NCBI GenBank assembly: GCA_008632985.1
Contig: QPGO01000077.1
Coordinates: forward strand, 124,001 to 188,000
DNA from: Psammoneis japonica
Taxonomy: Eukaryota
DNA length: 64,000 nucleotides
Direction: 5' to 3'
In this document: in pieces, positions 1,601-64,000 of the stretch
Position numbering within the stretch: position 1 is the stretch's first letter
Layout: every line of letters begins with the position of its first letter
Made by a program: the position numbers and the translations under genes
The notes under the pieces: model-generated
The model's database searches: none
Told to the model about the DNA's origin: nothing
Seen by the model: the letters and a program-made list of their open reading frames with translations, nothing else

Positions 1601-1761
1601 ATGCCAAGCCAATTAGCAGGGAATGCACCATTCCAAAGCCCACATTGAAATGAGGCAAGAGACAACTGAGTGAGATGCAAAGTGATTGCACTCAACTCAC
1701 CACAGTTGTGGCTTGTTGTGGATGGAGCAGGGACAAGACATGTTGTCTTTGATGCAGAACA

Positions 1762-16659: not shown

Positions 16660-19600
16660 AGCAATTTTCATGTGCCCCCAGATAGATGCAAACCGGTGCG
16701 CGAGGCAGGTAGGAGTCGTCCCGTCAGTGTCCAGCTCGTGCTCGCCAGTCGCCGTAGCAGGAGGTCGCCACCAGATTGACTGCAGATCGCACTGCAATCC
16801 ACAATGACACAGCTGAGCTTTGATGCTGCCAACCGTGAGTTTGAGTGTTCTCTCGAACTTGCCCGAAATGCTGAATCGAACATCAGGGTCAGAGGTTCTA
16901 CAAAAGAACACCAACTCGTTTCATTGACGTGCAGGCTCTACACTGCTGGAAGAACATGCACGCGTCTTGGTGACGCTGGATCTCATGAAAGAATCTGCCC
17001 AAACTCCTGCTCAGCAACGCCGGACGTGTTCCAGGTCTAGGTGGGACCTCGCACTGCTGAACTGTGACATCGACAGTTTTTTGAATCACGTCGCATGTCG
17101 CGCACGTAGATTTCTACGTGATTTTTTCGACATCTTGTGTCATTTTACGGCACACTCATTGAGCGATCCGTCCAAAAACTTTTGACATTTGTTGTTACAG
17201 CGCGATTCTATGATGTCTTAAAAATCGCGTAGGGCAGGTGCATTTGCAAAAACGTCGAGTGGTGAGAGGCAAAATTGCACCACAAACTTGGCCGTTTATT
17301 TGATGTTGAAGACAAATGCATCCATTGGTTAAATTCTCGTGCTGCGGAGCTCGCACGTAGAATTCTACGGGCCCAATGTCACACGGAGTCCCACCCAGGG
17401 CTGGAACGCGTCGCCGCTTCAAGGAGGCAAAATCTTGTTTTCGTGACGCTGTTGCTCCCCTTGCTCCCCATGAGAATTCTCCTCGAGGCCATGTGCAGGA
17501 GTTTGTGCGATGGAGCATCAGTTTGAGATTTCGGAAGCAAAGAATCAGAGATCGCCACTGCTCCCGGTGGCGACATTTCCCAAGTGCAAATTGTGGCTGC
17601 TTCTAAAAAGAGCCGGTGACCCACACCGCACAGCAGAAGTTAAGAGACTGTCCTCTTGGATCTCGCCACCATGCAGTGCAGTGGCATCAGATTTGTTCTT
17701 GCAGTGCTGCTCAATTGCTCAACCAAAGTCTGCAGTGGTGGCAGCAGTGCATTGCAGCAGGCACCGCTCCGAAAGCATTCTCACAATCATGGCATGTTGG
17801 AAATGCCTCCAAGATTTTGAGGACAACACAAGCACTGGCATGTCTTGAGACATTCATGCCCCAATCATGCAATTCCGTCACTTTGATGGCAAACGAGTGT
17901 GGCGAGCAACCTGCTCTCTTGCTTTTCTGGAGCATGGGCTGACAATGAGAAGCAATGCATGCCGCATGCCGGCAAACTGCATCATTGCCAAGATGCGAGC
18001 TGCTTTGTCGCATGATGTCAAAGAGAAGCAAGTTCAAGCAGAAGCTTTTGAAAAACTGGCAAAGGCGTGAGGTGTCTCAATGCCCGACAATGACGATGAA
18101 CTCAGAACTGCAATTAAAGGTGCCTCTGATCCACAGAAGAATCGACGGGCCTTTGAGTTCAGGGTCGCCGACACACTCGACAAAGGATGCAGTGGAATTG
18201 CTCATGGAGCCACTCACGTCATTGCCGACCATGGAGTTGCTGTGGAATTGTTTGCTTGCAGGTGACACTTCATTGGGAGGATGTCAGGAAAGAGATTGAG
18301 CTGCAGATGTCTTTTTCTCACCCAGGAATCCTTGGCTCTTCTTAGACTGCCACCGTCCGAACAAGAAGACTCAGACATGCATTCAGCTGGCTCTGTAGAT
18401 GATGTTGAGCTTTCCATGTTTTTCGTCATTTGGATTTTGGGGCAGCGTCCCACCGGATCCTTGCTTGATCTCGCGCGTTCGATCCCAACAACTCAGTTGT
18501 CTGCAAGAAGAAGACGTTGCCAGATGCATTGCGGACATTGCTTCTGGGCTTGATCATTTGCATTCTGAGAAAAGACTCACCCAAGTGTTGTTATGATGCA
18601 GCGTTTTGGGTCAGGCCAGCCACACTTCGAGAGTTTGGGCCAATGTTGGGAGTGATGGATTGGTCCATTCACACTCTGGCGGGAATGGCAGACCCGGCCG
18701 ACTTCATTTGGTCACTGAATGACAATCCAATTTGCAATGAAGCAGTTCATTTTGGCGCAATTGTGTGTGGACAATGCTGCCGTTCACCAGGCTTGAAAAT
18801 GTTGGTGTCTTCATTGTTTGTGTCACTTTGCAAGGAGATCACAGTGGACTGCGACAGTGGATTCTTTCCCTTCCACAACCGGGTTATGCTGGTTGCCAAC
18901 TCGTTCTTAAGAGACGATTTTCCAAGAAAAATCTAGCCACTCTCCTTGGACGATGTCTCCCTTGAAAGGCTTCTGTTTGCCACACAGTGCAAGATGATCA
19001 GGCGGGTGACAAGGCCACATTCATGACATCAAACGAGGCACACTCAAACATGTCAAGAGAAGGCATCTTGTTTGAATCTTCTTCAATTTGTTTGAATCTG
19101 GTTGGCACAAGTGAGCACAACAAAGTTGGCAGTGCGGAGTTGTTCGAGCAGCCTGGTCATCATGTCCAAACACCCAGCTGCTTCTTGGTGAAAGAAGGTC
19201 ACAGTGCAGGAGGATTCAGTGTGGCAGCATGCTCACCAAGTTGACACCAGAAGAAGAAGAAGCTAATTTGCAGGACCAACAAGCCACACAGCTTGTTCAA
19301 TGTGAGACACACAGCGGACCAAGGGCAACGACGACACTGGCTTGACTCACGCGTGAGTTTGGGATGACCGTCGTTGCACCAGCCTTTGAGTTGCTGGGAA
19401 ACCCTGCAGTTGACATGAAAAGGGCTGGTCCTTGCCCCCACATGGAGTGGGACAGCACCAAAGAAGGAGCAGGTGGCACAACAGTGCACACCGCCCACCA
19501 CACACCAAGAAGCTGGGGGTGTGTTTCTGACACTTTCCTCTCTGCCAAAAGGAAGCTCTTGACCCAAACGTGTTCTTGGAAGTGACAAAGGACAAAACCA

Positions 19601-20100
19601 TCAGCTGAGTGTCTGTGTTTGTGACACCCTGCCACTTCTGAGAGAGCAGGCATGTGTTCCCCACACCCGGCCAGCTCAGAGCACCTCGGGTTTCTTTCAC
19701 ACTGGGTTGTTGCTTTTTCTCCTCCCAGTTGCAGTGGCATCATGTCGGTTTCAATCATCAACTCCACAATCAAATGCAACAAGAACAGCTCTTTCTAGCA
19801 TGTGGATGCATGCCATTGTCTCGACACTGCCAGCAGAGCTGCCTCGCTTTGCATGCCGCACCAGTGCCAATGCTGCAATGATGGCACACCGCCCGGTGAG
19901 AGTTCGGAGTGCCAATGAATCACGAGGAGTGAGTCGTTGAGTCACGAGCATTACGTCACCAAAACGTCAGCAAATGCCAGAAGGCCATTTTAGAAACATC
20001 TTGATAAAATTTAGATTTTCTGAAAAATAGCAAGCAATTTAGCCATTTTATTGTCAGAAAATGGTACTTTGGAGAAGGTTTTTCGCAAATGAAAAAAGGT
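16660..20100. mobile_element. TpA-depleted island of unidentified origin (decayed TE or gene copy)
   Basis: Clear compositional change between two normal genes; fragmented ORFs with no recognisable domain. Confidence 0.45.
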
Positions 20101-43899: not shown

Positions 43900-45706
43900 T
43901 TACAGCGGGAGGTACAAGGGTTCCATGCATGGGTCATAACAGTAATTGAACTTAGGCCTTGGCTCTCCTTGACATCCAGGTGGAACAGCTCCTGTTTCGG
44001 GCCAACATAGGAGCCCTTCTTTGCACTGCCCGTCGTGGAAACACGTTCCCTGACACCTGTCGAGAGGGAACAGCTCAGGAACTAACTTGAATTTCCCAAT
44101 CTTTTCGACGAATGGCAGAGACGTCGGTCCAGTGGTCGCATAGGGAGTTGGCGAAGGAGTTGAGACAGGCGAGGAGGTCGGCGGATCGGTTGCGGGGGAC
44201 AAAGTCGGTGAACCAGTTGCAGGAGCCGTTGGCGCAGAAGTTGGTGGAGATGCGGTTGGTTCAGGAGAAGAAGGGGTGGTGCTGTCGTCGTAGCAGTATC
44301 GCACACCAGCTTCTGGCTCTCCTTTGCATCCAGGGGGGGCAACTCCTATAATTACAGAGCAAGGTGGCGTTAGCAAAATACGGTATGGGAGAAGCACAAA
44401 AGGGGAAGATTATGGAAAACAAACTTACCTGCGACAGGCCAACACTTGAGGTCACCACTACACTGATTATCGACAAAGCAGAATCCTTGGCACACATCCA
44501 AAGGGAATTTTTCTGGAACTCTTCCGAACTTTCCAACCTTTTTTAGATATTGGTCTTGCATATCTGACTGAGTTGGCGCAGGGGAAGGAGGCATGTCCTG
44601 TTCTTTGTAACAGTATCGCACGTCGGCTTCTGGTACTCCTTGACATCCTGGGGGGCTCACTCCTACAAGGGAAAGAGCGAAGTAGCGTAAGCAAATATTG
44701 ATGAAATGGATAGAGGAGAAAATGGGAAAAGAAACTTGCCTTTTTCAGGCCAACACTTGAGATCTCCGCTGCACTGTTTATCGCTGAAACAGAATCCTTG
44801 GCACACATCAAGAGGAAACAATTCTGGAACTCTTCCGTACTTTCCAACCTTTTTAAGGTACGGGAGTTCCATGCCTCCATCAGTTGGCGCAGGGGTAGGA
44901 GGCATATCCTGTTCTTTGTAACAGTATCGCACGTCGGCTTCTGGTTCTCCTTGACATCCTGGGGGGCTCACTCCTAAAGTGACAAAGAGCGAAGTAGTGT
45001 AAGCAAATATTGATAACATCCATAGAGGGGAAAGGGAGAAACGAAACTTGCCTTTGTCGGGCCAACACTTGAGGTCTCCGCTGCACTGTTTATCGCTGAA
45101 ACAGTATCCTTGGCACACATCCAAAGGGAACAATTCTGGAACTTTTTTGTACTTTCCAATCGTTTCAAGGTACGGGAGTTCCATACCGGCAGGAGTTGGC
45201 GAAGGGGTTGTGGTAGGAGGCATGTCCTCGGCTTTGTAACAGTACTGAATATTCATGTTCGCATCTCCTTTGCATCCAGGGGGAACCTCTCCTGAAACGA
45301 CAAAGATCAAATTAGTGTTAGTAAATCTTGGTAAATATAAAAAGGAAAGAGTGAAAAAAGGCATTCGCACCTTTCTGCGGCCAGCACTTAAATCCCTCCT
45401 TGCACTGGTAGTCATTATCGCAATCGCCCTGTAATGGTCAAGTAGAAATGTCAAGAAGATTTTGTGAGCAATTAATTCCAACTGTAGTCGCATCAGAGAG
45501 TCTCTCCCCGTTGCTTTACTCACCTTGCATCTACCAAGCGGAAACCTTTCGGGGTGCTTGTCATAATTTCCAATGTGTTTGAGAAAGACAAGGAAGCCGG
45601 AAGTTTCAGTCATTCCGCGTAGCCCAAAACTGTCGGGTTCTTCTTCACCGTTGGCCAAGAGTGGCGCCGCCATTGCCAAGGTTGCAAAAAGCGCTTTGAA
45701 GTTCAT
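43900..45706 (-). CDS. Frustulin-like secreted cell-wall protein, five ACR-type domains, multi-exon
   Basis: Signal peptide MNFKALFATLAMAAPLLANG; repeats of FPL..C(K/Q)GxC..D.QC..(G/D)L.CWP..G.PPGC.G.....YCY separated by Pro/Thr linkers. Confidence 0.85.
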
Positions 45707-47079: not shown

Positions 47080-48500
47080 GCCCTAGAGGCAACAATGCTT
47101 GACTTGCCCCACGGCAAGACGACAGCACGCAGCTTGCTCAAATCTCGATCGAGCCAAAATGACAATTGCCTCTGTTGAGTTCCAAACATGTTGCATGGGC
47201 AAAACCATTCATCTTCCATACAGTGTCATCAGGGCTTGGAATTGGATGTGGATGGCAGATGAGACATGAGTTGAGGTCGTGAAGAGGTCAGTGAGAAACC
47301 ATCCAGACTCCAACATCTTTCTTGGGAGATGGATCAAACTCGTGGAAAGCCTTGTGCTAACTGAATTTTTTTAGTTAAAGCACCAATGCTCTCCAACACA
47401 TCAACTTCTTTGTCTGCATTGTGTTGAAGAGTTTGTGGAGCAGTGTGAGCATTTGGACAACAAGGCTGAGATCCTCTTAGCTTGACTCGAAGCTTGGCTG
47501 GTGGGCCAGGAGCAGCACCGAGAGATCCCTCAAATGGACTCAAGTGACAACCAAATGATTCAAGCAGATCTTGCTGTTGGGACTCAGAGAGATGGCTGCA
47601 CTTCAAAGCCTTTTTATGGTTCCATGGCTGGCACAACTCTGCTGATGCTTTTTGCACTCATGACGAACAACACTGCATTCTTTTTCCATCATTGGAATGT
47701 GTGCAGTTCCATGGACAGGGCATGCACTGCCTGAAAATTATTTTCCACAGCTGCTGCCACCAGCTCCTTAACTCTTGCTGTCACTTTGATTCAAGAACCA
47801 GTTTCTGCCATGACAGTTGGATGGATTGCTTGGTGTTTCATCAATTTGTGAACCACTTTGAGGATTGTTTGGCTCCATTTGGTGCAAGCTCTCACAATGC
47901 TGGGCTTGTTGGTTTGCAATGCCCAAACATTGAATGTTTGCTTGGGTTTGTTCATTTTTCCAGCATTTGGGTCCAGACTTCTGGTGATCAAGGTGAGCTC
48001 CACTTCCACAAGTTTGGGGTGTGCTGCATGTTGTCATCTGCTGTTGCAAGTGAGAGCATGATGTTGGCAAGGTCATTGAGCTGTTGGAGAAACAACTGGA
48101 TTGCATGTTGCACAATTTGCTTTGTTGGAGACTGTGGCCAGTCTTTGGTGTCCACTGCAATGTTGCAGGTTGTCTTGGTTGAGACAAAATCCTCAAGCAG
48201 TGCATCAAATGTGTCTTGGCCTCATGGTCTTCACTCTGTTCTAGCATGTGCAAGATCTCCCTTTGTGTGACTTGATGTGCTTGCATGGTTGCAAGAGGAG
48301 ATGAGGAGAGATTGTGAGAGCAAATGCATCCAATGACCATCTTGATGTCTGGTGCATTGATCAACAATGTGTGTTTGTCAGAGGAGGCACACACTCAACT
48401 TGAAGCATGAGTGACTTAAATCAATCACTCTTCCCCACTCCATGGTGTGCATGTGACTGTGCACCATGACTCACGCAACCCATTTGAAAGCTCAGACATT
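47080..48500 (-). mobile_element. Decayed Gypsy pol (reverse transcriptase N-terminal region)
   Basis: PFEGSLGAAPGPPAKL...QPCCPNAHTAPQT...KEVDVLESIGAL and downstream VLPWGK, matching Gypsy RT with Tyr read as Cys/His. Confidence 0.7.
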
Positions 48501-50591
48501 GGGAAAAACCCTCAGCTCCTCTGATGCAGCATCACACAACAAATGTCAATCCACTTGACAATGTGCAACATCTGCAGCACTGGTGCAGCCCAGTTGGCAT
48601 GGACTTGCACTGATTGAAATGGGCCCAGAGCTTGAGCCTCCAACAATTGGCAGGATCAACAGACTTGGGGTTGGCGCATCTTGCCCACTTGACAATCAAA
48701 GGATCTGCTGACACCAAAAGATCTTGTTGATGAGCACTTGACAGCTGGCTCAAGGCTCAAATCATGGTCTCACATCCACCACTGCTGGAAATTCCAAAAA
48801 CACATCCTGCCAGAGGTCCGGCACTCCTGACTGAACAGATTGCAGCTCTCAGAAAAACAAACAAAGCAGGGCATGAGACACCACACAGCCAGCATGTCAC
48901 AAACTGTCTCATTGGCCTGTTAAAGATTTTCAGGAGGGTCAGCAAAAGAGCACAATTCACAGGACATTGGCTGCTGTTTGATGCATTCTTTCACAACCTA
49001 AGTTGGCTTGAGGATTGCATGACATGCAGTTGGCACATCTGTTGAGACTGCTGGATTGAGCAGCATCAGAGGTTCTCCCAACCAACAAACCTTCCTTTGT
49101 TGTCATGCACACAATGATTCAGTCAGGGATGAGCATGAGACAACCAAAAGTTTTGGAGCTTGTTGGAGACATGTGGCAAGGGGCTTCATTTTCAATGCAC
49201 ACTGGCTCAGTCAATCCAGCAATGGTGCCAATGCAACCAAGGGCACTGAGTTCAATCTCCACACCCCAACCAAACCACAACTTTCCACAGTTCAGTCAGA
49301 TCAACAGCAACTCAGGTCTACAGAATCAAAGGAACTTCTTGTTCCAGCAGCTTGCTAAAGCCAGGCCCAAGTTGCTTGCAATGACAACAAGCACTTTGCA
49401 TCAATGAGTTGCAGAAACAGCACAAATTGTTGGGAGATGATGAAAAATGAAAATGAGCACAAATCATTTTGCTTGCCACAAAGAAAAGACAACAATGGGG
49501 TGGGTGGGTTGCAGCAACATTTTGGCATGTGATTCAACCAATGAGCTCAAATCCAATGACAAGCTTGACTGCCCCTGGCTTTGTGGTCTGCAAAGCATGT
49601 AACAATGATTGTGCAGGTGCGTGTTGCACTGGTGGGCAAATTCAAAGCTTGCAAAAATGACAAATGAAGTGTGCAAAGTTCAACCCTTCTTAGACTCTTC
49701 AAACAGCACTCAACCAATGTCAAGGAGAGCAAGTGTGGGTCAGTCTTTGACTTGCATGGGAAACAACTAAAGAGCACTTGGTTTGTGGGTGCATCAATGT
49801 CCAAGGCCAAATCATTGCTTGGAAGTGCTTGTGCCAGCATTTTGCACACAAGACAAGCACACAACTTGGATGTGGGGCGAGATGCAGGTTTGTCCCTTGT
49901 CAACTTCACAGATGATGTGGGAGTGCTGGAGTGTCTTATTTCAAATGGAGCCAGAAAGGAAAATGGGGTTGGCAGATTGGTCATTTGGTTGAGAAGATCA
50001 ACTCCCACCCTTTTTTTATTTTGTGTTCAAACAGAGACAACAATGATCTCCCCAGTTGTGCCTCCACAAAGGGGCCAATGGAACCACCAAATTGGATTTG
50101 TCACTTTTCACAGGTGCATTGCTGAGGCACAGCCTGGGGGTGGTTTGCACACAAGCTCACATGTTGAAGACTGGCAGAGGTGGTTTTGGGCATGTTTTGT
50201 CACAGTTGCAACAAAGGGAACAACCAGCCCAACAGCATTTCTGTGTTTGTTGTTCAAAGTGAGCAATTCCACAGTCAAAAAGGGCAGTCTTCTGGAAACA
50301 CACAGTCAATCCACTGAGCCCAACCTTCTGAGTTTGCTGGACAAAGCACCAAACTTGTCAGGCATTTGTGATGCATGAGGGTCCAGCTTGGGGGGCATTG
50401 GCACAAGGTCACAAGAGAATCAGAGCCCCTCTCAAACCTTCGAAATCACGCTCGACAACGCATCGGCCTTGACAGCATGATTGTCTGTTATGACCGCTCA
50501 CACAATCTCGGAAACCTTCTGTCTTATCGCAAACTTTGCATCTCCCATGGCCCCCCAGTTTCGTCCCACCGGATTACAAACAGGGAGGCCC

Positions 50592-50624
<33 letters not shown>

Positions 50625-50706
50625 GGTGATTTGAATTAATCAATCGAGTCAACTCGCCTGTCCTCCACCACTTGGATTTTTTAATGCAACAACCTCAACC
50701 ACGTCA

Positions 50707-50777
50707 ACAACAACAGCCGGCCGCTGATGAAGCCACCGCGAAAGTCTCATTCTCCTGACTTCGGCCAACGTTGTTGT
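50707..50777 (+). ncRNA. Type I hammerhead ribozyme (minimal stem II)
   Basis: ggccg CTGATGA a gc-cacc-gc GAAA gtc-tcattctcct-gac TT cggcc; stem I extended by acaacaac/gttgttgt. Confidence 0.75.
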
Positions 50778-51218
50778 GCCTGCTGTTTGCCGAAATAGTT
50801 GGATAAATGTCCGATTAAGTGGCTCTACCTTAGCTGCTTGTATTTTTTGTTTGTCACATTTGACGGAGAATCGGCTGCGCCGATTCGTTCGTTCGTTCGA
50901 GAGAGAGAGAGAGCACTCACCACCACTCTCCCAACTCCGCAATCATGCCCGCCAGTGCGTTGGACTTGACCGCATGATTGTCTGCTGCAGTTAATCCTGC
51001 AACCTCAGAAACTTGCTCTTGCACCGCAACCTGCGCATCTCATCTGGCCCCCCAATTTCATCATACAAACAGGGTGGCCACTGAGAGAGAGAGAGAGAGA
51101 GAGCCAATGACACACCAACCTGAACTCAAATCAAATCAAGTCAATTGTTTGCTCTGTCTGTCCTCCCCACAGCAACAATGACTGGGATCTTTTTAACATG
51201 ACAACCTCAACCATGTAA

Positions 51219-51290
51219 ACAACAACAGCCAGCTGCTGATGAAGCCACCATGAAAGTCTCACTCCTGACTTTGCCCAAGTTGTTGTGCCT
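51219..51290 (+). ncRNA. Degenerate second hammerhead copy
   Basis: agctg CTGATGA agccaccat GAAA gtc..gac TT tgccc; core intact, stems I and II damaged. Confidence 0.55.
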
Positions 51291-52149
51291 GCCATTTGTT
51301 GAACAGTTGGATGAACATCCAAACTGGTGGCTCCCACCACAGCCACTTGCATTCTTGTCAGTCAAATTTGATGGAAAATTGGCTGTGCCAATTTTGTTTG
51401 TTCATTCAAGACAGGCATTGGGTTTCTGGAAAAGTGGCAGCAACTGTGGGTGACAAAGAACAGGACACTGTAAAACAGCTTTGGGGCTTTGGTCTCACAC
51501 ATGAGTTGGAGTTGCTGTCTTGCATTGCTGGAGAAAGGACAAGAGGACTGGGCATTGAGAGGTTGCTGGACAAACGCCTGAGACAGGCGAGTGCTTGGAC
51601 TCAGTCTTCTGTGACTTGGATTGGTGGTGGGACAGACCCAACAAACCAAGTGCAGTGGATGACCATCACAGACTTGGACGATGAGTTGGCATCTTGCACA
51701 AAGTCAGGTTGGATGTGTGCCATTGGGTCATTGCAGAAAGCAGGAAGCCAGTTTCTAAAACACAAGTGGGGCACATGTGACACAAGTGGCAGATGTGGTG
51801 CAACCTGATGTCTGGGCCACCAAGATTGATGGCTCCAACAAGTGCTTTGAGGTGCCATTGGATGATGCTGACCCTTCATTTTGCAGGGCAATGAGGCTGC
51901 ACCAGCATTTGAATTGGACACAATGGCCATTGTTGATGGCAGCTCTTGCATGGTGCATGAAAGTGGGATCACTCCAATGGATGAGGAATTTGGGGCATGT
52001 TGTTGCCAGGCAAACAACCCAAGAATGATGAGCAGAAGTGAGCAATCAATCAGTGTCTGGGAACAGAGCTTGCTTTTGACATTGGAGCAGATGGCAAGTG
52101 AGGTGGTGCAGCAATGAAGCAAGCAAGAGGTCAGGGTGGATGCCTGGTC

Positions 52150-53400
52150 AGAGCTCGGCACATCAAAACTTGTTGTTTGACACCCATGAACACAGCATGC
52201 CAACAGAAATGACAGACATGAGTGCACAGCCAAAGCAATCACTAAAAACATGTGTTTGCTCAAGTGGACAGCAAGGCCAAATGGCATTCTGCCTCACACA
52301 AGATTCAAGATCATGGGACATTGGGCAATGCAGCAGCGTCAATTGAGGATGGAGTTGAGTGCTGTGCTGGTGAGAAGGAAAAGAAGAAGGTTGCAACAAG
52401 CTGCTGGAAGACACCAGTTGCTTGGAAGGACAGCAGCACATCATGAGCAAAATTGAAGGAGAGCCAGGATCTGCCTTGGAGTGAACATGGAGAAGGTTCA
52501 GACCAACAATGGCTGCATGATTTGCACTGCTCACCAAGGTCCTGCACCATGTTGGCTGTCAAGATGGCAGAAGGCTTGTTGGATGAGGATGGCAATGGCA
52601 AAGTGTCAAAGAACACAAAGGGCCCCACCCCAAAGCACAAGCTGGAGTTGGATGTGACAGTGAAGTCATGCCCAGATTTGGCAGACAGGTGTTTGCAGTT
52701 GACTGGCATCTGTTGCTGTGTGATCAATCTGCTGGGTTTTGTCAACATTTTGCGTGAAGTCTCAGCCCTTTCTCAGCATCAGGCAAATCCAAGAAAAATG
52801 CATTTGGAGGCTTTTTGGGCCAAGTGTTTTTGCACATGAAGAAGCGCCAAAATGCTGGAAGGTTGGATTTGATCCAAAGGTGACAGTGGCTGACACAAGT
52901 CTGTCATTTTAGCTGGAGCACAGGCTGGGCCAACTTTTGTGAGGACACCAAGGAGGACATGCCACAGTGGATGCCCAAGCCTTGTGGCAACCCAGCAAAT
53001 GTCTGTGCATTTGTTGATGCCAACCATGTGGGCAATGTTGTCAATTGCAGGTCTTGCAGTGGGAACCCGATGAAGATCAACAACCCACCAATTGTTTGTG
53101 CAGCAACATTTGGGGTTGAGTTGGTGTGGCAAGGAGCACTTGCAAAGAGTTGATTGTTGTGCCACATTGCAAGCTTTGCATCTTTGGTGTGCCGTTGGAA
53201 GGGCCGCCAAGCATTTTGTGTGACAATCACCAGAAGTGCTCCCAAGCTGGCTCTTCACAAGAAGCACAATGCCATCAACTGTCATGTGGTCAAAGAAGCT
53301 GTGGTGGATGGGACAATTTGAGTTGGAAAGGAGGGAGCAGACACAAACTTGGTGGATTTGTTGATGAAACTGGCCGCTGTTGAGTGGCCCTGGAAACTCT
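52150..53400 (+). mobile_element. Decayed Ty1/copia RT-RNase H fragment
   Basis: HKLELDVT...RCLQLTG...EVSALSQHQANPR..HLEA; MPKPCGN..CAFVDANHVGNVVNCRS; HCKLCIFGVPLEGPPSILCDN; KKHNAINCHVVKEA. Confidence 0.85.
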
Positions 53401-54036
53401 GTTCTTGCATCTCTTTTGGTGATGCCCCGGTGCCAAGGCTGCGCACTTGTGGCTCACGTCCCTCCCACGTGCAGTTGCCCCCCCAAGGCCAGCATGGCTT
53501 GTGGCTCAACTGGGTTTTGTGGTTTGCCTGTCACTGAGAGGACGTCATTGGGACCACAGAATCGAATGAATCTGGATGGAGCAGTCTCTCCCTGGTCGGG
53601 GCATGCGTGCATGTGATGTTGCACATTCCCTCTCACCATCCAAGTGCGACAAGGTTCTCATTGACAGCACTGCTTCTCTCTACATTGGACTAAAGGTGCC
53701 ATGCTCATTCTGTCGTCGCATCGGGATTTATGGCACCAGATGAAAGTCGACAGACTGGCAATCGAATGGTGAGCTAAAATAGAGAGGAGCTTTAGAACTG
53801 CATTCTCAACGGTCCTCGTAGGAAAAACGTAGGGGCCAGAACTGAGACGACTTGGAATGACTTGTGGGTGTCCTTTTCTCAGTAGATGGCCTGCAGCAAT
53901 GGAGTGCACAACAAGAATTCTCGACAGAAACCAGAAGTTTCCATTCGGCTTCAGAATTCAAAGGAAGACAAACAGACGGCCACTCTTGGCTCAGGCTCTA
54001 ATCTCACATCAATGCAAGTGCTTGCAGTGTTTGAGG

Positions 54037-54888
54037 TCAGGCCAAACTAAGGGAAGCGACATGGATCATGGTGGAACTCTTGCACGCAAATTGGTGAGCG
54101 CACATGAGGTCGTTGACGTCTTCAAACGTCGCACCCATGCAAGTGTCTTTTTTGATGCAGGACACCGTGTTGACGTCGTAGATCGTCGCTCCGTTGCAGC
54201 TGTCCTTGTCTTGACAGAGGAGGCTGTCACAATGAGACACTGTGGCTCCATCGCAAGTTCCAGCGGGGCAAACAATGTCTCTTCCCATCGCAACCTGAGC
54301 AGTGATGTCAGTGCCATCGACTGCCACGCTGCAGGGGGGACCAGCGCCGTTGAGGATGACACCGTCACAACTCTTGGGCCCCTCACAAATGAGGGATGTA
54401 GTTGCTCCCGTAATGATGGCACCATCACAGGCATTCGGCACGGAGCACTTGACAGATGCGGCATCGTTAATTTCGGCGCCCGCACAGGCGTTGTCTGCCG
54501 TGCATTCGACGAAATCAACATTGAAGAATTTGGCGTTTTGGCAAGCCGAAATCAACGAACAAATCGTACGGTTGTAATCGGTCACTTCCATGTTAAGGCA
54601 AGCACAAGCACCGGAGCAGTCTACCAGGCCGCCTCCAGATGCTCTACCGGTAAACTTGGCATTGTTACAAGCCTGGTATCCACAACAACACGCCCCTAAG
54701 TTTTCGGTCACTCTGGCATATAAGACCGCTCGATAGCCATACGCGTAAACACATGGTGCCTCCACAGTTGCATAGTAGGCGGCAGCACACCCGTACGCGT
54801 AGACATCGGCGGATTTAATGTCGGCGTAAATAGCGGAATAGAAGCCATAAGCATACAAATACGAAGTGTCGATCTCCGCAGTGTCGCA
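54037..54888 (-). pseudogene. 3' part of a secreted Cys-rich repeat gene interrupted by the copia
   Basis: CDTAEIDTSYLYAYGF... with repeats of about 18 aa (C....AC..A.I); continues the frame of 61316-61170. Confidence 0.8.
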
Positions 54889-55096
54889 TGTGAAGATATC
54901 ATATTTCGTGCGTCATTGCATTATGACTCACTGTCCCAAAAATGACTCATAAACATCGGTCTTCAATGAGAGACGAGGAGCCTCTCACATCCTCACAATT
55001 TTACTACAGCTGTTATTGTAACACCTATTTGATCGCCCCAATACTTACTAGTCATCACTAGCTACCGCTACTGATCTGCTTTTGAGCATTTAAACA
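54889..55096 (+). repeat. 5' LTR
   Basis: tgtgaagat...tttaaaca; aligns without gaps to 60962-61169. Confidence 0.97.
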
Positions 55097-55112
55097 CGCT
55101 TCCTCTGCGCTA
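55097..55112 (+). promoter_or_regulatory. Primer-binding site complementary to the tRNAiMet D-arm
   Basis: cgcttcctctgcgcta directly follows the LTR; the reverse complement tagcgcagaggaagcg resembles initiator tRNA UGGCGCAGCGGAAGCG. Confidence 0.7.
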
Positions 55113-55118
55113 AGTAAC

Positions 55119-56429
55119 ATGTCTGACGCCTCTTCAGACGCTTCGTCCGTGTCTGGACCGGAGCTAGGAGATGTTCCCGAAGATGTCCCATTTGCATTGG
55201 CTCCGGCACAAGCGATCACCACGGTCATCGATTGTCGTTCGAGTGCGGGTCGTAAGCTTTTTGAGCAAGCTACCAAGCCGCTGGACGAGGAATTATTCGA
55301 TTGTGAACCAGGAGACCTGTGCCAGTTCCTCAAGAACTTGGAAGACAGAGCCAGAGAGTTTGGGTGGAATGATGAGAACGGAGCATTCATGATCCCAGAA
55401 GACCACGAAGACATCCTGGAATCCGAGAGGTCTAATCTGTTGACCGACTATGGTCAGATAGACCTAGAGAGGATCCGGGGCTTTGAAGAATCCTACATCG
55501 GTAACGAGAGTCGCGCAGCGCAAGATACCTGTCTAGCGTATCGCTGCCTAATGAACTCCGTGTCGAAAGCCGGAAAGGATAAAGTGAGGATCTGGGAATC
55601 AGAATACAAGATCGGAGATCGTATGTCCGGAAATCTCCTTCTCAAGATCATCATCAGAGAATCCCACCTCGACACGAACGCCACGACGAGTACGATCCGA
55701 ACGAAATTGAGTCAACTCGACCTCCATCTCCCAACGATCGGTCATGACATCTTGAAGTTCAACCAGTGCGTGGCATTATTGCTTGCCGCCCTTAAGTCAC
55801 GAGGCGAAACCACTGAGGACCTGCTTACGAACCTCTTCAAGGGGTGCCTGGCTGCTTCCGACAAAGTTTTTGTCAAGCACATCGAGCGTAAGCAAGAACA
55901 GTGTGAAGAGGGCGAGGACATGTCGGCGTCGCAACTTATGAACCTCGCGGGCAACAAGTACAAGAACCTGCTTCAGAAATCGCCATGGAACGCCCCTGGT
56001 GCGTCTGAAGAAAAGATCTTGGCTCTCCAAGCTCAAGTGGAGGCCCTCAGCAAGAAATCCCACAAGAAGACGGGAAACAAGGGAAAAGACCACGACGCGC
56101 CTCAAGGTGCTCAGAAAGACGGGAAGCCCACGTGGTTGAAGAAACACAGGCGTCCCAAACGCGACCAGTTGACCAACCCGAGAACTTGGAAAGGTGCCGC
56201 ATGCTGTTGGTGTGAGAAGAGTGCCGGCGGCAAGTGTTCTGGCAAGTGGCGTGTCCACAAGCCCTCCCAATGTGAAGGCAGAGAAGGCAAGAACAAGCCA
56301 CAGAAAAACGAGTCTACAGCACCACCCCACAAGAAACAGAAGGGACCTGACGGACACCCACGGCTCAAGCTTGACAAAGCATGCCAAGCCGCAGTGGACG
56401 GGCAGGACTCGGGCGAGGAGTCTCAATGA
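55119..56429 (+). CDS. Copia gag
   Basis: PFALAPA, GNLLLKII, DTNAT...IRTKL, NLFKG(C), CCWC...KWRVHKPSQC knuckle. Confidence 0.85.
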   Translation: MSDASSDASSVSGPELGDVPEDVPFALAPAQAITTVIDCRSSAGRKLFEQATKPLDEELFDCEPGDLCQFLKNLEDRAREFGWNDENGAFMIPEDHEDILESERSNLLTDYGQIDLERIRGFEESYIGNESRAAQDTCLAYRCLMNSVSKAGKDKVRIWESEYKIGDRMSGNLLLKIIIRESHLDTNATTSTIRTKLSQLDLHLPTIGHDILKFNQCVALLLAALKSRGETTEDLLTNLFKGCLAASDKVFVKHIERKQEQCEEGEDMSASQLMNLAGNKYKNLLQKSPWNAPGASEEKILALQAQVEALSKKSHKKTGNKGKDHDAPQGAQKDGKPTWLKKHRRPKRDQLTNPRTWKGAACCWCEKSAGGKCSGKWRVHKPSQCEGREGKNKPQKNESTAPPHKKQKGPDGHPRLKLDKACQAAVDGQDSGEESQ

Positions 56430-59400
56430 CTCCTTGAGCACGGCTGCAGCGGTTGTGATGGACATGGGTTGGAAACCATGGCGTCGAAGTGTTTTGCGAT
56501 CATCAAGGCAACTGCGCTCTTTGCCTGGCAGGCACTCGCCTGCAACCACACAACCATTGTGATGACGTCGCTCTCATTTGAAAACAAACGAGTGATCGAA
56601 CAAAAGCTGCTAGCTCATGCTCCAATTTTACTGTCGATGGCGATGGTCCTGATCTGCATTTGCTTCTACGCGACCGACCCCAACTGCAAGCCCGGATGCA
56701 CGCCGAAACGGAAGAGATGGCACCGGGTGCGACGAGGGTGGACCATGCTCACTGAAGGTACATGCAAGATGGGGACCAGCATTGAGCAGATTGTGGGAAG
56801 CATCAACACTGCCAACAAACCCAGAAGAGGGAGAACAATCAAGATCCAACGTGCCGCAACAAAGGTGAAACCCAGACAGAAGAGGCGAACATGGGGCTCG
56901 ATTATGGCGCTAGCCATGGTGGCCATGCAAGCCAAAGGGAAACACATAAAAGAGCACACCGTCACGTTTGATGCCGATTCTGGGCCAGTCGGAGTGGACA
57001 ACAGATGCACAGGTTGCACATCCGACCGAACAGAAGACTTCATTGGCGAGCTGAGAGACACAAGAAGAACCATTAAGGGATTCGGTGGCTCTCGAACACA
57101 GGTGTGAAAGTTGGTGCCCTGCTGTGGAGATGGAGTGACGATGAGGGAAAGACACACAAGTTCGTAATCCCCAACTCATTCTACGCACCTGACGGCAAGG
57201 TCCGCCTGCTGAGTCCCCAACACTGGGCAAAGGCACTGAGAGACAACAAGCCGATCGAAGGAACTGGATCAGAGACAAACTCGAAAGAGGTCACACTGTT
57301 CTGGAACCAACGAAAGCATCGACTGACTGTGCCGTTGAGCGAGACTACGAACGTAGCCACCTTCGCTCAGCACCGGGTCATCAGAAGTTCGAAGCATTTT
57401 GCGCCGACGCGGACATCGATCCAGCGAAAGAAGCAGACGATCCTCTCCTTGCACTAGATGCAGCAGTCGTCAGTGATGACGAGGACGAGGAAGAGACGGA
57501 TGTCCAGTTCGATGCAAAAAGCATGCCAAGGAATGGCAACCTGAACCCCAGGAGGTGGCGCAAGAGACAGGGTTGGCTGCCGATCAGCGCGTCCACCCAC
57601 TGGGAGCAACGTTTGACATAAATGGGCCAACAAGTGGTGGCAACTCAGAGGGAGCACCGACTGCTCCACCGCCACGAGTGGTGGAAGATGAAGAAGACAG
57701 ACAGCCAGATGCGGACACGGCGCTGCTCCTCAAGTGCCACCAACAATTTGGGCACATTGGCTTCACAAAGTTGCAATGGATGGCAAAGATGGGCATTCTA
57801 CCAAGACGGCTTGCAAAGTGCAACGTACCTGCTTGCTCGGCATGCCTGCGCGCAAAGGCGACCAAGAGAAAATGGCGCGACAAGGCACGGAACGATGATG
57901 CCGAGATAGAAGCTCCAACAAAACCAGGCCAAATTGTCTCAGTGGATCAATTGGCATCTCCGACACCGGGTCTAATCGCACAAATGACGGGCTTCTTGAC
58001 CACAAAACGGTGCAAGTGCGCCACAGTCTGTGTCGACCAGTGCTCCAAATTGGGTTGCGTTCATCTGCAAAAGACAGCAACGGCAGCTGAAACGTTAGAG
58101 GGAAAACAAGCTTTTGAGTTGTGTGCAAAGAGTTGTGGCGTGACCGTTCAGGCTTGCCATGCTGACAACGGAATGTTCAAGGCCAACGACTGGGTGCATG
58201 TGTGCAGGAGACAAGGGCAACAACTGACGTTCGCTGCCGCAGGCGCTCATCACCAAAATGGCACGGCGGAGCGACGGATCCGAGAGCTCCAAGAGCTCGC
58301 CCGAACAATGTTGATCCATGCCAACAGCCGCTGGAAGAAGTGCATTGCCGCAAATTTATGGCCCCACGCGATTCGCATGGCCTGTGACGCCATCAATCAC
58401 ACGCCCAACCTCCAACACAAAGACCGATCAAGCCCACTCCAGCTGTTTTCCAACACGAAAGTTGCCACCAATCCAAAGCACTGGAAACCATTTGGTTGCC
58501 CAGTGCACGCATTGGACTCCGCATTGCAATCAGGTCCACCGTGTCACAAATGGAAAGACAGATCAAGGGTTGGAATGTGCTCAGGCCGAAGCCCACAACA
58601 TGGCAAGAACGTGGCCCTGGTGCTCGACCGAGAGTCGGCACCAGTGAGTCCACAGTTCCACGCAAAATTTGATCCATCATTCCATGCGCTGAAGCAAGAC
58701 ACTTGCGATTCTCTGTGGCAAGTGAAAGCCGGGTTCGTTGCTCAGAGGGAGACAAAAGGAACCAAGAAGAGTGGCAAGACCAAAACGGCTCCCACAAGTG
58801 CTCCGGATCGTCCCAAGAAGAAGCGCGCACGAGCTTCAGAGGGAGCGGGGCAAGGCAAGAAACGAAGAACCATTCGTTGGGCTGACCAACCAACACGGCC
58901 ACAAGATGGCGATGCTGCAGTGACCGACAGCCAATCGGTGTCCGAACGAGAGATGCGCCGAGAGCCCAATCACAACAAGGCCAACGCATCCGAAAGGACT
59001 GAATCTCTAGAAGCACCTCCACATGAGGGCGAGTCTGATCAAGCACGAGACAGTCATGCTGAACCAAAAGTGACACGATCAGGGCGCAAGAGCCAACCGG
59101 TCAGCAGATTGATTGAGTCCATGGAGACTGAGATCAAGAAAGACACTGAAGGAGGCGTCGAAGGAGAACTGCTGTGCTTGGCCGCACTGCATCCTCGAGA
59201 CTCGCAAGCCCTCCAAGAAGAAGTCGCAAATCCCCTCCTTGCCTGCAAAGCATCAGCAGATCCTGACACCATGCACATGCACCAAGCCATGAAAGAACCG
59301 GACCGCAAGGAGTTCCTCAAGGCGATGCAAAAAGAGGTGAAGGATCAAATGGAAAATGGAAACCCACTCCATCATTCCAAGATCACAGGTGAAACAAGAC

Positions 59401-60891
59401 AGAAAAGTGCTGCCTGCAGTGTGGCAAATGAAGCGAAAGCGAGACATGCGCACCCGAAAGGTGAAGAAGTGGAAAGCGCGACTTAACATTGACGGCTCGA
59501 GGATGAGAAAAGGAAAAGACTACGATGAGACGCATGCGCCGGTTGCATCACGAAATTCAGTGCAGCTGCTGCTCACCTCAGTGGGAGCACATGGGTGGCA
59601 TTCAAAGCAACTGGATCATGTCCTCGCTTTTCCTCAAGCACCGGTCGAAAAGGATCTCTACATGGAGATTCCGTCCGGATTCGAGCTCGAAGGCGCCAAC
59701 ACCAAGGATTGTGTCCTGCGCTTGCATCGGAATGCACACGGGCAGAAGCAGGCAGGGCGAGTCTGGAACAAGTATCTCGTGGACAAGTTAGTCAACAAGT
59801 TGGGTTTCGAGCAATCCAAGGTCGACGAGTGTGTGTTTTATCGCGGAAAAACGATTTGCCTTCTCTGCACGGATGATTCTTTGCTCGCAGGCCCTGATGA
59901 ATCTGAGATCAACAAGATCATAGAGGAAATCAAGCAAGCAAAGTTAGATGTCACGGTGGAAGGCGATATTCAAGATTTCCTTGGCATAAACATCACCAGA
60001 AAGTCGGATGGAACGATACACCTGACGCAACCCCACCTGATCGACCAGATTCTGAAAGACTTACGACTTGATAAACCGAATATCGTCGGAAAAGACACAC
60101 CTGCAGCTTCATCCAAGCTCCTATCCAGGCATTCAGAATCAAGACCATTTGATAATTCCTTCAATTACAGGTCGATCATCGGTAAGCTGAATTACTTGGA
60201 GAAATGCACCCGAAGCGACATCGCATGCATCACGCACCAGTGCGCGAGATTCACTGCAGACCCGAAGGTAGAACATGGCGAGGCCATACGGTGGCTAGGC
60301 AGACATCTGTATGCTACGAGAGACAAAGGTACAATTCTGAAACCAGATTCCAAAAAGGATTTGGAGGTGTACGTAGACGCCGACTTCAGTGGCAATTGGG
60401 ATCGAAAGGAAGCTGCGAGCGACAGAGATGCCGCAAGATCCCGTCACGGGTATATCATCACTTACGCTGGTTGTCCGATCCTTTGGAAGTCTCAGCTACA
60501 GACTGAAATAGCGTTGTCCAGTGCCGAAAGTGAATGTGCCGGATTGTCGCATGCCTTGCGAGAGGCCATCCCTGTGATGGAAATGTTGAAGGAACTGAAG
60601 TTGCGAGGGCATCCAATCAACTCGACGACGGTGAAGATGCACTGCAAAGTTTTTGAGGACAACAGCGGCGCGCTGGAAATGGCGAAGGTGACACAAGTGC
60701 AGACCGCGCACCAAGCACCTCAACGTGAAGCTGCACCATTTCCGTGACTGTGTCAGTCGAAAGGAGATCTCAATCCACTCTATCGACACCACTGCACAAT
60801 TGGCCGATTTTCTAACTAAAGCGGTCAATCTGGACGTTCTGCTTTGGTTACGACCGAAAGTAATGGGTTGGCAGGTATTTGAAATACTTTA
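56430..60891 (+). pseudogene. Copia pol (protease, integrase, RT, RNase H) with several frameshifts
   Basis: FDADS..VGVDNRC; HQQFGH..C..C; VSVDQL; HADNG; HHQNG.AERRI; WKARLNIDG; GQKQAGRVW; CTDD; YVDADF; FEDNSGA; ADFLTK. Frameshifts near 57100, 57365, 57555, 59370 and 60690. Confidence 0.93.
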
Positions 60892-60947
60892 AAAGTGGAT
60901 TCGCGCGCAAAGTGCGTCAAACCTTCATTTTCGAGATGCATGAGATC

Positions 60948-60961
60948 AAAATGAGAGGGAG
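60948..60961 (+). promoter_or_regulatory. Polypurine tract
   Basis: aaaatgagagggag immediately before the 3' LTR. Confidence 0.85.
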
Positions 60962-61169
60962 TGTGAAGATGTCATATTTCATACGTCATTGCATTATGAC
61001 TCACTGTCCCAAAAATGACTCACAAACATCGGTCTTCAATGAGAGACGAGGAGCCTCTCACATCCTCACAATTTTACTGCAGCTGTTGTTGCAACACCCA
61101 TTTGATCGCCCCAATGCTTGCCAGTCATCACTGGCCACCGCTGCTGATCTGCTTTTGAGCATTTAAACA
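60962..61169 (+). repeat. 3' LTR
   Basis: Matches the 5' LTR with 14 transitions and no indels. Confidence 0.97.
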
Positions 61170-61316
61170 GTCGCAACCATAATGTCCGTAGCAGCAGGCA
61201 TGGGTGGACGAGATCGTGGCATCCTCGCACTCACATGCATCGTCGCAATAATTCTGTGAGGCGGCACAGCGGAAGATCCAGGCAAGAACCAAAAGTTTTG
61301 CAAGAGAAACAAGCAT
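61170..61316 (-). pseudogene. 5' part (signal peptide) of the interrupted Cys-rich gene
   Basis: MLVSLAKLLVLAWIFRCAASQNYCDDACECEDATISSTHACCYGHYGCD ends at the target duplication. Confidence 0.8.
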
Positions 61317-61899
61317 GGTGTGTGTGTGTGTGTGGGTGGGTTTTCTTTCTTGCACTTTTAGAGTAGAGAGGTAGAGTCGTCGTCGCAACTTCTTGTATTG
61401 TGGCACGAAATCTTTTTGCACCAATCCATCGGATGAGCAACTTCAAGCCGGAACTGGCATGGAAGACACGCAGAATTGCACAGGAAGCGTTTTACATACA
61501 ATGAAGGCATGTGTCTATCCAGTCCAGCTTCTGGCAGAAGTCGAGCAGCTGCGCAGTTACAATGGCTGCACACGTCAGTGGAAATTCGTGGAAAAAGTGC
61601 AACCAGCAGCTGTTGCTGTGATGACTGTGTTCTTTGTCATGAAACATGGCAGCTGTCGCTGACAACTGTTGTTCTTGAATGCCGGCAAGCAGTGGCGGGC
61701 CCCGCACGTAGAAACACATGTGGACGAGCGTCACGCTTCGAATCATCATTTTGGGGGAGTCGCGGTGACTCACACACTGCAGTGTTGTGGTTTCGCGTGA
61801 CTGCTTTTTCTCACAACCGATGCTTCCATTCCATGCATGCATTGCATCAACATGACGACCGAAGCAGTGCCAAACCTTCTCAGCACCCCAGAACAGAAA

Positions 61900-64000
61900 G
61901 ACAGATGTGTCTGCAGCTGGGGTGCAGAACGCCGCAAAATGCAATGAATCTTCAGCACTCTTCTCCGTGCAGAAGAAGATGAACCCCGCGGTGGTCGCTG
62001 CATGCGTCTGCGTCTTTCAGGTGACTCAGAAAAGGTGTGGAAATGGTGACAGGCTGCACTGACAAACCTTGGCATGAAAGAACAAGACGCTGAAGGAGCG
62101 GAGCGTGCTCCCACAGCCAAGACACCATTGGATGCCAGGACAGCTTCGATTTTTCGACTGTGGCAAACATCAGTCAACTCCTAAGATTCTTTGTTGTTGG
62201 AAACAAAACAATCACCTCGGGACAACCACGGAGCAGTTCTTGACAAACAAAAGGCTTTTCAGAAGCTGCGCAAATGCCAAGAGAGTTTCAATCAGATGAC
62301 GCTCAGCAACCACATCCAACTCAAAGAAAAGGCAGACAACAAAGAGAATGGTGCATCAGTGAATGATTTGTTGGAAAAGGTGAAGGGTGAATTGTCGCGC
62401 ATTAAACAGAACAACAGAGCCAGGACTTGTCAAAAGCAGGCATGAGCTGCTGAAGCAGTCAGCACCCCAGAACTGACACGCAATGAAAGTGAAGTGGAAG
62501 AAGTCGCCACAGACTTTCTTGACAGCAATTCTGTGCAAAGGCACCAGCTGACATCTGCAAAATGGTCCTCCAACAATCCAGCAGCATGCAAAGATTTGTT
62601 TGGGTTTCAATCATTTCCAGAACTCAAGTTGATGGTGTCGGCTTTCTTTCGTGAGGTTCTTCTTGCAGTGCCAGATGCATGTTTTGACAAGAAGGGAAAA
62701 AAGCTGAAATGTCATCCTCCAAAGCCAACAACACATTTGAGCAGGTTCTTGTCATCAAGTGCTTCATGCATTGTTGTCCTGTGTGAAAGCATGCAGGATG
62801 GACCTTTGGCGTTGCGCGTTGAACCATTTCCGATTGCCTGGACCGTTGGGCACCTTGCTGGGCCACGCTTGGTGAGTTTCTATCCACACTTCCCACACAA
62901 AGAAATTGTTTTGACAAGGAACGTCCAGATAAATTCATTGAACACAGACTGGAAAAGACTGGCTTTCTCATGGACGGCAAGGACACCTTCTTGACAGAAG
63001 CAAAGCGCAAGGATGATGCTGCATGTTGCAACCAACAAAGCAACAAAATGCATGGCTCAGCCACTTGATGGGTTAATTTTGTGTCATGTTGTGTGCTGAC
63101 TTGTGAGCACACTGGAGCATTTGGGGCAAGAGCCAAAGAGAATGCCCTTGTTGAAATGACAGGTGAATGCCCGGTTGAGACAGCACCATTGGCAGAATGG
63201 AAGGACCATGCTCTGAAGCATCCAAGTCATGAGATGTTGAAATGCTGGATGGCGCTTGATGATGTGGTGATGGGAAAGACTTTGGATGGTTTGACTGAGA
63301 CTGTTGCACCAGAGTCGCTTCATGCATTGTTGTCCTGTGTGAAAGCATGCAGGATGGACCTTTGGCGTTGCGCATTGAACCATTTCCGATTGCCTGGACC
63401 GTTGGGCACCTTGCTGGGCCACGCATGGTGAGTTTCCATCCACACTTCCCACACAAAGAAATTGTTTTGACAAGGAACGTCCAGATAAATTCATTGAACA
63501 CAGACTGGAAAAGACTGGCTTTCTCATGGATGGCAAGGACACCTTCTTGACAGAAGCAAAGCGCAAGGATGATGCTGCATGTTGCAACCAACAAAGCAAC
63601 AAAATGCATGGCTCAGCCACTTGATGGGTTAATTTTGTGTCATGTTGTGTGCTGACTCATGAGCACACTGGAGCATTTGGGGCAAGAGCCAAAGAGAATG
63701 CCCTTGTTGAAATGACAGGTGAATGCCTGGTTGAGACAGCACCATTGGCAGAATGGAAGGACCATGCTCTGAAGCATCCAAGTCACAAGATGTTGAAATG
63801 CTGGATGGCGCTTGATGATGTGGTGATGGGAAAGACTTTGGATGGTTTGACTGAGACTGTTGCACCAGAGTCGGAAGACGAGTTGAGCTTGGTTGAAGAG
63901 GGAGAGAGCAACAGAAGGAGACAAGGTGTGGTTTTGGATTTGTCAAATGCAGACTGGAGCAACATCGGATCTGAAAGTGACAAAAAGCTGGGTCTGCAGC
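61900..64000 (+). mobile_element. Decayed PIF/Harbinger-like (DDE_Tnp_4) transposase
   Basis: ACKDLFGFQSFPELK..., FGVAR.TISDCLDRWAP.W (HTH-like), LMDGKDTFLTE..R...SNKMHGSA. Confidence 0.65.
62761..63872 (+). repeat. 556-bp tandem duplication (62761-63316 and 63317-63872)
   Basis: gcttcatgcattgttgtcctgtgtg ... gttgcaccagagtc occurs twice with few substitutions. Confidence 0.95.

Follow-up and report, generated by a model that had tools for sequence, protein, structure and literature searches.

A Ty1/copia retrotransposon in the diatom Psammoneis japonica appears to have lost TpA dinucleotides, almost to saturation in much of its length, after it inserted. The element lies in a 64,000-nucleotide stretch of contig QPGO01000077.1 (assembly GCA_008632985.1, positions 124,001–188,000), hereafter the window, and is bounded by two long terminal repeats (LTRs). 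The most probable history by far is that a Ty1/copia insertion was followed by a local process that turned TpA into TpG or CpA, an A:T-to-G:C change falling on either strand. The loss covers most of the interior, the distal 3′ LTR and the DNA to the right, while an island of about 1.3 kb is almost untouched. Because this spared island holds the 5′ LTR while the 3′ LTR was mutated, the two LTRs now differ.

The LTRs of one insertion differ at TpA

The LTR pair is the sole 208-bp direct repeat of the window and aligns without gaps at 93% identity (repeat search and MAFFT). Since the same hexamer, GTCGCA, stands directly outside both copies as a target-site duplication, the two LTRs can be assigned to one insertion. 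Ty1/copia duplications are usually 5 bp; this one reads as 6. The class assignment draws on an RVT_2 match (3.6e-39), a weak gag_pre-integrase match (both Pfam) and TG...CA LTR ends, and integrase homologs of the element reach E values down to 6e-165. No second copy of the LTR or of the element was found within the window by blastn or tblastn.

In our count, the LTRs differ at 14 positions, every one a transition, with no indels. Twelve sites read TA in the 5′ copy and TG (7) or CA (5) in the 3′ copy. The only reversed site, at LTR position 21–22, is TG in the 5′ LTR and TA in the 3′ LTR, and the one mismatch outside TpA is CG in the 5′ LTR versus CA in the 3′ LTR, leaving 13 of 14 at TpA sites. 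A preliminary description of the window had given the same figures, namely 14 transitions without indels (13 TpA versus TpG/CpA, one CpG versus CpA) and 12 of the 16 TpA of the 5′ LTR reading TG or CA in the 3′ LTR, and our recount agrees on each. TpA bases make up 32 of the 208 LTR bases (15%), and finding at least 12 of 14 differences there has a binomial P of 1.2e-8.

These losses are unevenly shared, 12 in the 3′ LTR versus 1 in the 5′ LTR. Expressed as rates within the pair, 12/16 TpA were lost from the 3′ LTR versus 1 change in 352 non-TpA bases, a contrast of about two orders of magnitude that is rough and involves a single background event. Conversion is densest at 3′ LTR positions 117–181, where 10 of 10 TpA sites are changed and beyond which the TpA-poor flank begins. 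Surviving TpA of the 5′ type stand at LTR positions 14, 34, 114 and 203 of the 3′ copy.

Protein conservation polarises the change

An LTR pair alone cannot polarise itself, and the coding interior was therefore used for polarity. The integrase frame was aligned with the best 80 of 884 relatives (HMMER, E up to 1e-30) and the reverse transcriptase (RT) frame with the best 60 of 120 matches listed, 140 homologs in the two alignments together. The integrase frame contains no tyrosine in 668 residues, with histidine at 4.3% and cysteine at 3.6%, and the element differs at 41 of 224 conserved columns. None of the eight conserved tyrosine columns is kept; they read TGC (Cys) four times, CAC (His) three times and CGC (Arg) once. 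Further changes in this frame are Val to Ala as GCA (three times), Leu to Ser as TCA and Leu to Pro as CCA. In the RT frame, 8 of 19 conserved tyrosine columns are kept and the others read His (five), Cys (five) or Trp (one); the tyrosine of the YTDD box has become cysteine. Across both frames, His or Cys occupies 17 of 27 conserved tyrosine columns.

The direction was quantified with a repair test, in which single transitions that give back the consensus residue were counted for each class of change (Table 1). In the integrase frame, TA-restoring repairs exceed those of other transitions with a Fisher P of 5e-7. As a control, a comparable load of His plus Cys at these columns occurs in 1 of the 80 integrase homologs (P0140) and 1 of the 60 RT homologs (P0022), the median being zero.

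Table 1 Single transitions that restore the consensus residue, by class of change
Class	Integrase	RT	Combined
TA-restoring	15/99	16/109	31/208
CG-restoring	1/80	2/113	3/193
Other transitions	3/266	4/422	7/688
Fungal-type (repeat-induced point mutation) direction	0/2	1/40	1/42

The part of the gag frame inside the spared island (55119–55900) has 0 stop codons versus about 3.6 expected under mutation in the direction of fungal repeat-induced point mutation (RIP), at the rate needed for the 5′ LTR to have gained its TpA (P about 0.015), which is a modest argument on the polarity of the 5′ LTR. The outcomes are balanced between strands: the frames show 17 TG against 14 CA, the LTR shows 7 against 5, and the totals are 24 and 19.

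Taken with protein conservation, these counts indicate that the element lost TpA, and was neither built without it nor gained it. The preliminary description had proposed as much, placing the action after insertion and on both strands alike. Its claim of loss is borne out by the repairs (31/208 TA-restoring versus 1/42 in the RIP direction), its strand symmetry by the nearly equal TG and CA outcomes in frames and LTR, and its timing by the divergence of two LTRs of one insertion and by other family copies that changed independently.

Two other accounts of TpA scarcity were rejected. Avoidance of TpA through selection or codon bias is ruled out by the destroyed conserved tyrosines and YTDD box, and RNA editing before integration by the unlike LTRs and the changes on both strands.

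Other copies of the family changed separately

Contigs of a public sequencing run (X1), in which 65% of sampled words from the window are present, show that further family copies clearly exist. Over the element there are 460 such contigs, of which 167 are at least 99% alike, 181 are 95–99% alike and 112 are 90–95% alike; their summed depths of 214–933 are not a copy number. Two other runs, X2 and X3, contributed no contigs. Of 103 rows of difference between this copy and the X1 contigs, 96 are transitions.

Event classes were assigned to 33 events from 40 of the 103 difference rows, those listed, with no LTR rows among the 40. TA here versus TG there accounts for 5 events, CA or TG here versus TA there for 7, and CA-versus-TG swaps for another 7; TG or CA here versus CG there was seen 5 times and CG here versus TG there once. 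Six swaps fall within aligned frames. The protein alignments allow a verdict on 4 of these, and in each case TA is a better ancestor than CG. Members of the family were therefore mutated independently, after insertion.

A single in-frame stop and three frame shifts also interrupt the frames of the element. Single-base length differences from the X1 contigs occur at five places in six rows (57096–57097, 57363, 57524, 59363 and 60690), and several coincide with the frame shifts, so that frame damage has come on top of TpA loss in this copy.

One 1611-bp X1 contig, at depth 66, covers 61140–62750 with a single other letter. Because this contig reproduces it, the depleted 3′ flank is not an invention of the assembly. 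The flank is represented by a single contig at the lowest depth seen, although depth does not equal copy number and saturated copies would seem unique.

TpA and CpG form a mosaic across the window

Observed/expected (o/e) dinucleotide ratios were computed in 1-kb bins, and TpA was counted in 200-bp bins around the element (Table 2). TpA-poor segments total about 27.4 kb, or 43% of the window, whose mean TpA o/e is 0.36; the CpG-poor segments all lie within TpA-poor ones. The depleted blocks (1–11000, 17301–20000, 47101–53750 and 61401–64000) mostly have TpA o/e of 0.02–0.2 and CpA/TpG of about 1.6–2.1, and their sequence is complex rather than made of simple repeats. CpG is nearly gone too (o/e 0.04–0.2) in 1–6450, 7651–11100 and 47151–53450. 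Gene-bearing stretches have TpA o/e of 0.33–0.70 and CpG of about 1.

In the element, the 200-bp bins hold 3–15 TpA within the island versus 0–4 in the interior, and 58401–59400 retains one TpA per 1 kb. TpA loss is near saturation in this young element and CpG and other sites are barely altered; TpA loss outpaces CpG decay there.

Table 2 Coordinates of the element and of the TpA-poor and spared segments in the window
Feature	Coordinates	Strand	Remarks
Old block	1–11000		TpA o/e 0.02–0.16; CpG mostly 0.05–0.2; CpA/TpG about 1.7–2.1
TpA-poor block, CpG only partly lost	17301–20000		1-kb bins
Old block left of element, TpA- and CpG-poor	47101–53750		1-kb and 200-bp bins
Spared island, TpA density normal	54400–55800		Host flank, 5′ LTR and start of gag
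Target-site duplication, left	54883–54888		GTCGCA
5′ LTR	54889–55096	+	TG...CA ends; little mutated; 16 TpA, o/e 0.85
gag-like open reading frame	55119–56429	+	No Pfam match
Element interior tract, nearly without TpA	55801–59750		CpG kept, o/e 0.73–0.83
Protease/integrase frame	57480–59483	+	Open, 668 codons
RT/RNase H frame	59341–60747	+	RVT_2
3′ LTR	60962–61169	+	Mutated copy; 5 TpA, o/e 0.32
Target-site duplication, right	61170–61175		GTCGCA
TpA-poor 3′ flank	61401–64000		Bins

The surviving TpA are not a random sample. Comparing depleted with genic DNA, survival is 0.86 for TTAA, 0.47 for CTAA/TTAG, 0.04 for GTAC and 0 for ATAT (0 versus 90), and ATAC/GTAT are almost gone. Within the old blocks, survival is 0.05–0.06 for TAC and TAT, 0.35 for TAA and 0.16 for TAG. 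These figures hint at a preference for TA with a pyrimidine after it, a lead for which coding DNA served as the baseline. The base before a tyrosine codon had no significant effect on whether His or Cys resulted (12/10 versus 7/12, P = 0.35).

The genes of the gene-bearing stretches encode a sterol-sensing protein, a RING/UBC protein, glutaryl-CoA dehydrogenase, a P450 and others. The best named matches of the dehydrogenase are from Nitzschia sp. (84%), Triparma (77–79%) and Fistulifera solaris (76%); those of the RT are from Attheya and Fragilaria, and the best P450 match is at 62%; none of the protein matches approaches identity.

Several further features of the depleted DNA were observed. 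On the host side of the insertion, 53851–54550 is TpA-poor with CpG kept, as in the element interior, and carries two overlapping frames of about 290 amino acids (53833–54699 on the plus strand and 54037–54912 on the minus strand) without Pfam match. Tandem duplications lie in the depleted blocks at 62761–63873 (557 bp, 98%), 9944–10575 (about 317 bp, 89%) and 7650–7904 (127 bp, 93%), and the differences within them are mostly transitions among CG, TA, CA and TG, including CA/TG swaps. An X1 contig omits 940 bases at 62609–63550, overlapping the 557-bp duplication, and may reflect a structural variant or a collapsed repeat. The internal repeats at 44255–45356, of about 71–79% identity and in a gene with a weak WAP-type match, have an ordinary spectrum (77 transitions, 71 transversions), unlike the depleted-block repeats.

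Environmental copia proteins carry the same footprint

Tyrosine is below 1% in 6 of the 270 homologs collected, the median being 3.6%. These low-tyrosine copia proteins (P0092, P0140, P0247, P0244, P0219 and P0112) have raised His and Cys. P0022, the RT homolog of the control above, was singled out by its His plus Cys load at conserved tyrosine columns and not by its tyrosine fraction.

The metagenome protein P0092 has a single tyrosine in 701 residues. It was compared with metagenome relatives at 73–86% identity, its own contig not being among them. Its intact relatives, at 79–86% identity, have TpA o/e of 0.59–0.80 and CpG of about 1. At 26 tyrosine positions of two of these relatives (L002/L003), P0092 keeps 1 and has His at 11 and Cys at 13; its next commonest changes are Ile to Thr (9), Val to Ala (8) and Thr to Ala (7). 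By this residue pattern, a second copia family, an environmental one, has undergone the same process.

Two distant copia relatives, L008:1-1709 and L009:1-1257, have CpG o/e of 0.20–0.39 and normal TpA (0.95–0.97). Because they are low in CpG only, CpG decay and TpA loss are separable, and these sequences, which show the one without the other, are useful as negative controls.

Alternative explanations

A different chemistry with the same footprint is unlikely, if still worth serious attention. The thymine of TpA could be the base attacked, for example as 5-hydroxymethyluracil made by a TET/JBP-type enzyme and followed by mispairing or faulty repair, or N6-methyladenine (6mA) at TpA could form first and then deaminate. 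TpA is self-complementary, and a modified-thymine route would therefore leave an identical footprint: T-to-C on one strand is A-to-G on the other, which sequence cannot separate, and CA and TG outcomes are near equal here. These data offer nothing against such a route, the fit of a T-then-A target to the U33–A34 site of TadA/ADAT being suggestive only.

It is improbable that the loss was passive, through TpA-specific damage (for example ultraviolet-induced thymine–adenine photoproducts) or error-prone repair in poorly repaired silent chromatin, without a dedicated system. Such a source would suit a pattern that tracks domains and not element boundaries. It fits poorly with a spectrum that is nearly all transitions (14/14 in the LTRs, 96/103 among the difference rows) and with near-saturated TpA loss in a young element whose CpG and other sites are barely altered. 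A similar hypermutation in the alga Bigelowiella natans was, moreover, active in only some parallel lines, according to a preprint (Mettrop et al., bioRxiv 10.64898/2026.01.13.699255).

We give very little credence to the ordinary RIP direction, under which the 3′ LTR is near ancestral and C-to-T change at CpA added TpA to the 5′ LTR, by a RIP-like process or by deamination of non-CpG 5-methylcytosine (5mC). The LTR pair by itself would allow it, and the TpA o/e of the 3′ LTR (0.32) lies near the mean of the window (0.36). The interior is polarised the opposite way, both by the repair counts of Table 1 and by the loss of all eight conserved integrase tyrosines; the TpA-normal island has a stop-free gag start where about 3.6 stops would be expected; and two opposed processes would be required within one element.

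Gene conversion, in which one LTR was overwritten from a differently mutated copy, has an equally slim chance. Possible donors exist among the 460 contigs, 112 of them only 90–95% alike. Against it, the GTCGCA duplication is intact, indels are absent, and the mutated half of the 3′ LTR continues into the TpA-poor, single-contig flank; the donor would itself have to have lost TpA.

Least credible is an artefact of base-calling or polishing at modified bases that yields false TG and CA: the assembly platform and the X1 library are unrecorded and X1 may come from the same sample, but a k-mer contig at depth 66 matches 1611 bp of depleted flank with one other letter, copies carry unlike outcomes at shared sites, an unrelated metagenome protein differs from its intact relatives by the same Tyr-to-His/Cys pattern, and the B. 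natans signature came from Illumina mutation-accumulation data (Mettrop et al., bioRxiv 10.64898/2026.01.13.699255).

Several points weigh against local TpA loss after insertion, or against parts of that account. The assembly may itself derive from the sample of run X1, whose library type is unrecorded, so that support from this run is not fully independent. The polarity of the LTRs was obtained from the interior, from contiguity with the TpA-poor tract and from the stop-free gag, without a direct LTR outgroup. The four surviving TpA of the 3′ LTR are interspersed with converted sites, which makes 'tract' an approximate term. The contrast between repeats and unique DNA is confined to the 64-kb window. 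Among 71 frames from the depleted blocks, together with two frames in the insertion-site flank, there was no credible Pfam match at E up to 0.5. Finally, the preference for TA plus pyrimidine draws no support from the His-versus-Cys outcome test.

Targeting and mechanism

We consider it rather probable that the process would be aimed at a silent-chromatin domain and not at sequence homology. Three observations favour a domain: the island ignores the element boundary, LTRs identical at the outset fared differently, and an apparently unique flank is affected. The preliminary description had called the process repeat-targeted. In the sense of RIP, that term is not supported: the LTRs are unequal, the island crosses the boundary between flank and 5′ LTR, and a 3′ flank seen in a single contig is depleted.

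TadA and ADAT2 convert A to I, which is read as G; their natural target is A34 after U33, a T-then-A context, and they are the basis of adenine base editors. Adenine in DNA might be deaminated to hypoxanthine by a putative TadA/ADAT2-like or other deaminase-fold enzyme whose tRNA target also follows U. We hold this enzymatic adenine deamination, the simplest chemistry and the leading candidate, as a tentative proposal, somewhat short of probable.

As genome defence, the process would remove every tyrosine codon, TATA-like and AATAAA-like signals, and TAA and TAG stops. Frames would stay open yet encode dead proteins. It may be of the same kind as that in B. natans. Nearly an even call, though one we lean slightly against, is that a single enzymatic TpA-rewriting system, chromatin-aimed and able to saturate its targets, is common to diatoms and chlorarachniophytes. 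Such a system may be old in the stramenopile, alveolate and rhizarian (SAR) lineages and common in marine algae, and the tyrosine-poor metagenome copia proteins (6/270) would be its footprint.

Significance

Mutation of DNA aimed at adenine or thymine, as a genome defence, has as its precedent one 2026 preprint on a single alga. The present case suggests that the process is limited neither to one species nor to viral inserts. LTR pairs and independently changed copies provide datable substrates from which rate, context and targeting could be read, and the hunt for the enzyme becomes a problem of comparative genomics, setting genomes with the signature against genomes without it. If a shared system exists, this comparison should reveal which enzyme is responsible, perhaps a naturally occurring deaminase of adenine in DNA. 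A natural A:T-to-G:C editor of double-stranded chromosomal DNA would be of interest to both the genome-defence and base-editing fields. For annotation the findings counsel caution, as long open frames may encode dead proteins and LTR divergence would overstate the age of an element.

Comparison with known systems

Literature searches found no report of TpA-erasing hypermutation in diatoms, and within their scope the view of the preliminary description, that none was known to be described there, stands. The passages retrieved from the diatom transposon literature do not mention dinucleotides, RIP or deamination, and those from a 2025 preprint among them also contain neither TpA nor hypermut.

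Decay of 5mC at CpG accounts for the CpG loss of the old blocks (o/e 0.05–0.2) and for part of the CpA/TpG excess. Among the 14 LTR differences it covers only 1, and it has no means of removing TpA, whereas the young element lost TpA and kept CpG.

ADAR hyper-editing of RNA and APOBEC editing of retroelement cDNA resemble the present pattern in their clustered, deaminase-type transitions, and ADAR favours U before the edited A, as the B. natans preprint states (bioRxiv 10.64898/2026.01.13.699255). Editing of either kind before integration would leave identical LTRs and changes on one strand, whereas here the LTRs differ, both strands are changed and flanking host DNA is affected.

Fungal RIP, too, inactivates mobile elements by local hypermutation made up of transitions only, and it leaves its mark on dinucleotide composition. 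It makes TpA from CpA/TpG, however, whereas the process here removes TpA; it creates stop codons, whereas here TAA and TAG are removed; and it depends on duplications, both copies of which it mutates, whereas in this case the LTRs are unequal and apparently unique DNA is affected.

The closest parallel is the hypermutation of B. natans. Of 302 new point mutations in its mutation-accumulation lines, 231 lay in two integrated viral regions, one of them single copy; nearly all of these were A>G or T>C, and the GC-biased ones were all at TpA, according to the preprint (Mettrop et al., bioRxiv 10.64898/2026.01.13.699255). Its authors give a rate of about 6e-7 per site per generation, about 1000-fold over background and in some lines only, report that TpA-poor coding sequences are enriched for RT and DDE domains, and propose an ADAT2-like adenine deaminase (bioRxiv 10.64898/2026.01.13.699255). 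The words diatom, stramenopile, retrotransposon and CpG do not occur in that preprint (bioRxiv 10.64898/2026.01.13.699255). In light of this precedent, the earlier assertion that no known process removes TpA is outdated (bioRxiv 10.64898/2026.01.13.699255).

The two cases share A>G and T>C change at TpA on both strands, a local reach that spares neighbouring genes, and a long-term footprint of low TpA with high CpA plus TpG. The single-copy target in B. natans shows that repeats are not required there. They differ in that B. natans is a rhizarian host in which giant-virus and virophage insertions are depleted about 1.8-fold (TpA Rho 0.45), whereas here a diatom-like host carries an LTR retrotransposon and blocks of no assigned origin, with TpA o/e of 0.02–0.1 and with CpG loss in the older blocks. 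Set beside what this one 2026 preprint reports, the finding is not wholly new: it is the B. natans signature, now in a diatom-like host, on a retrotransposon and near saturation.

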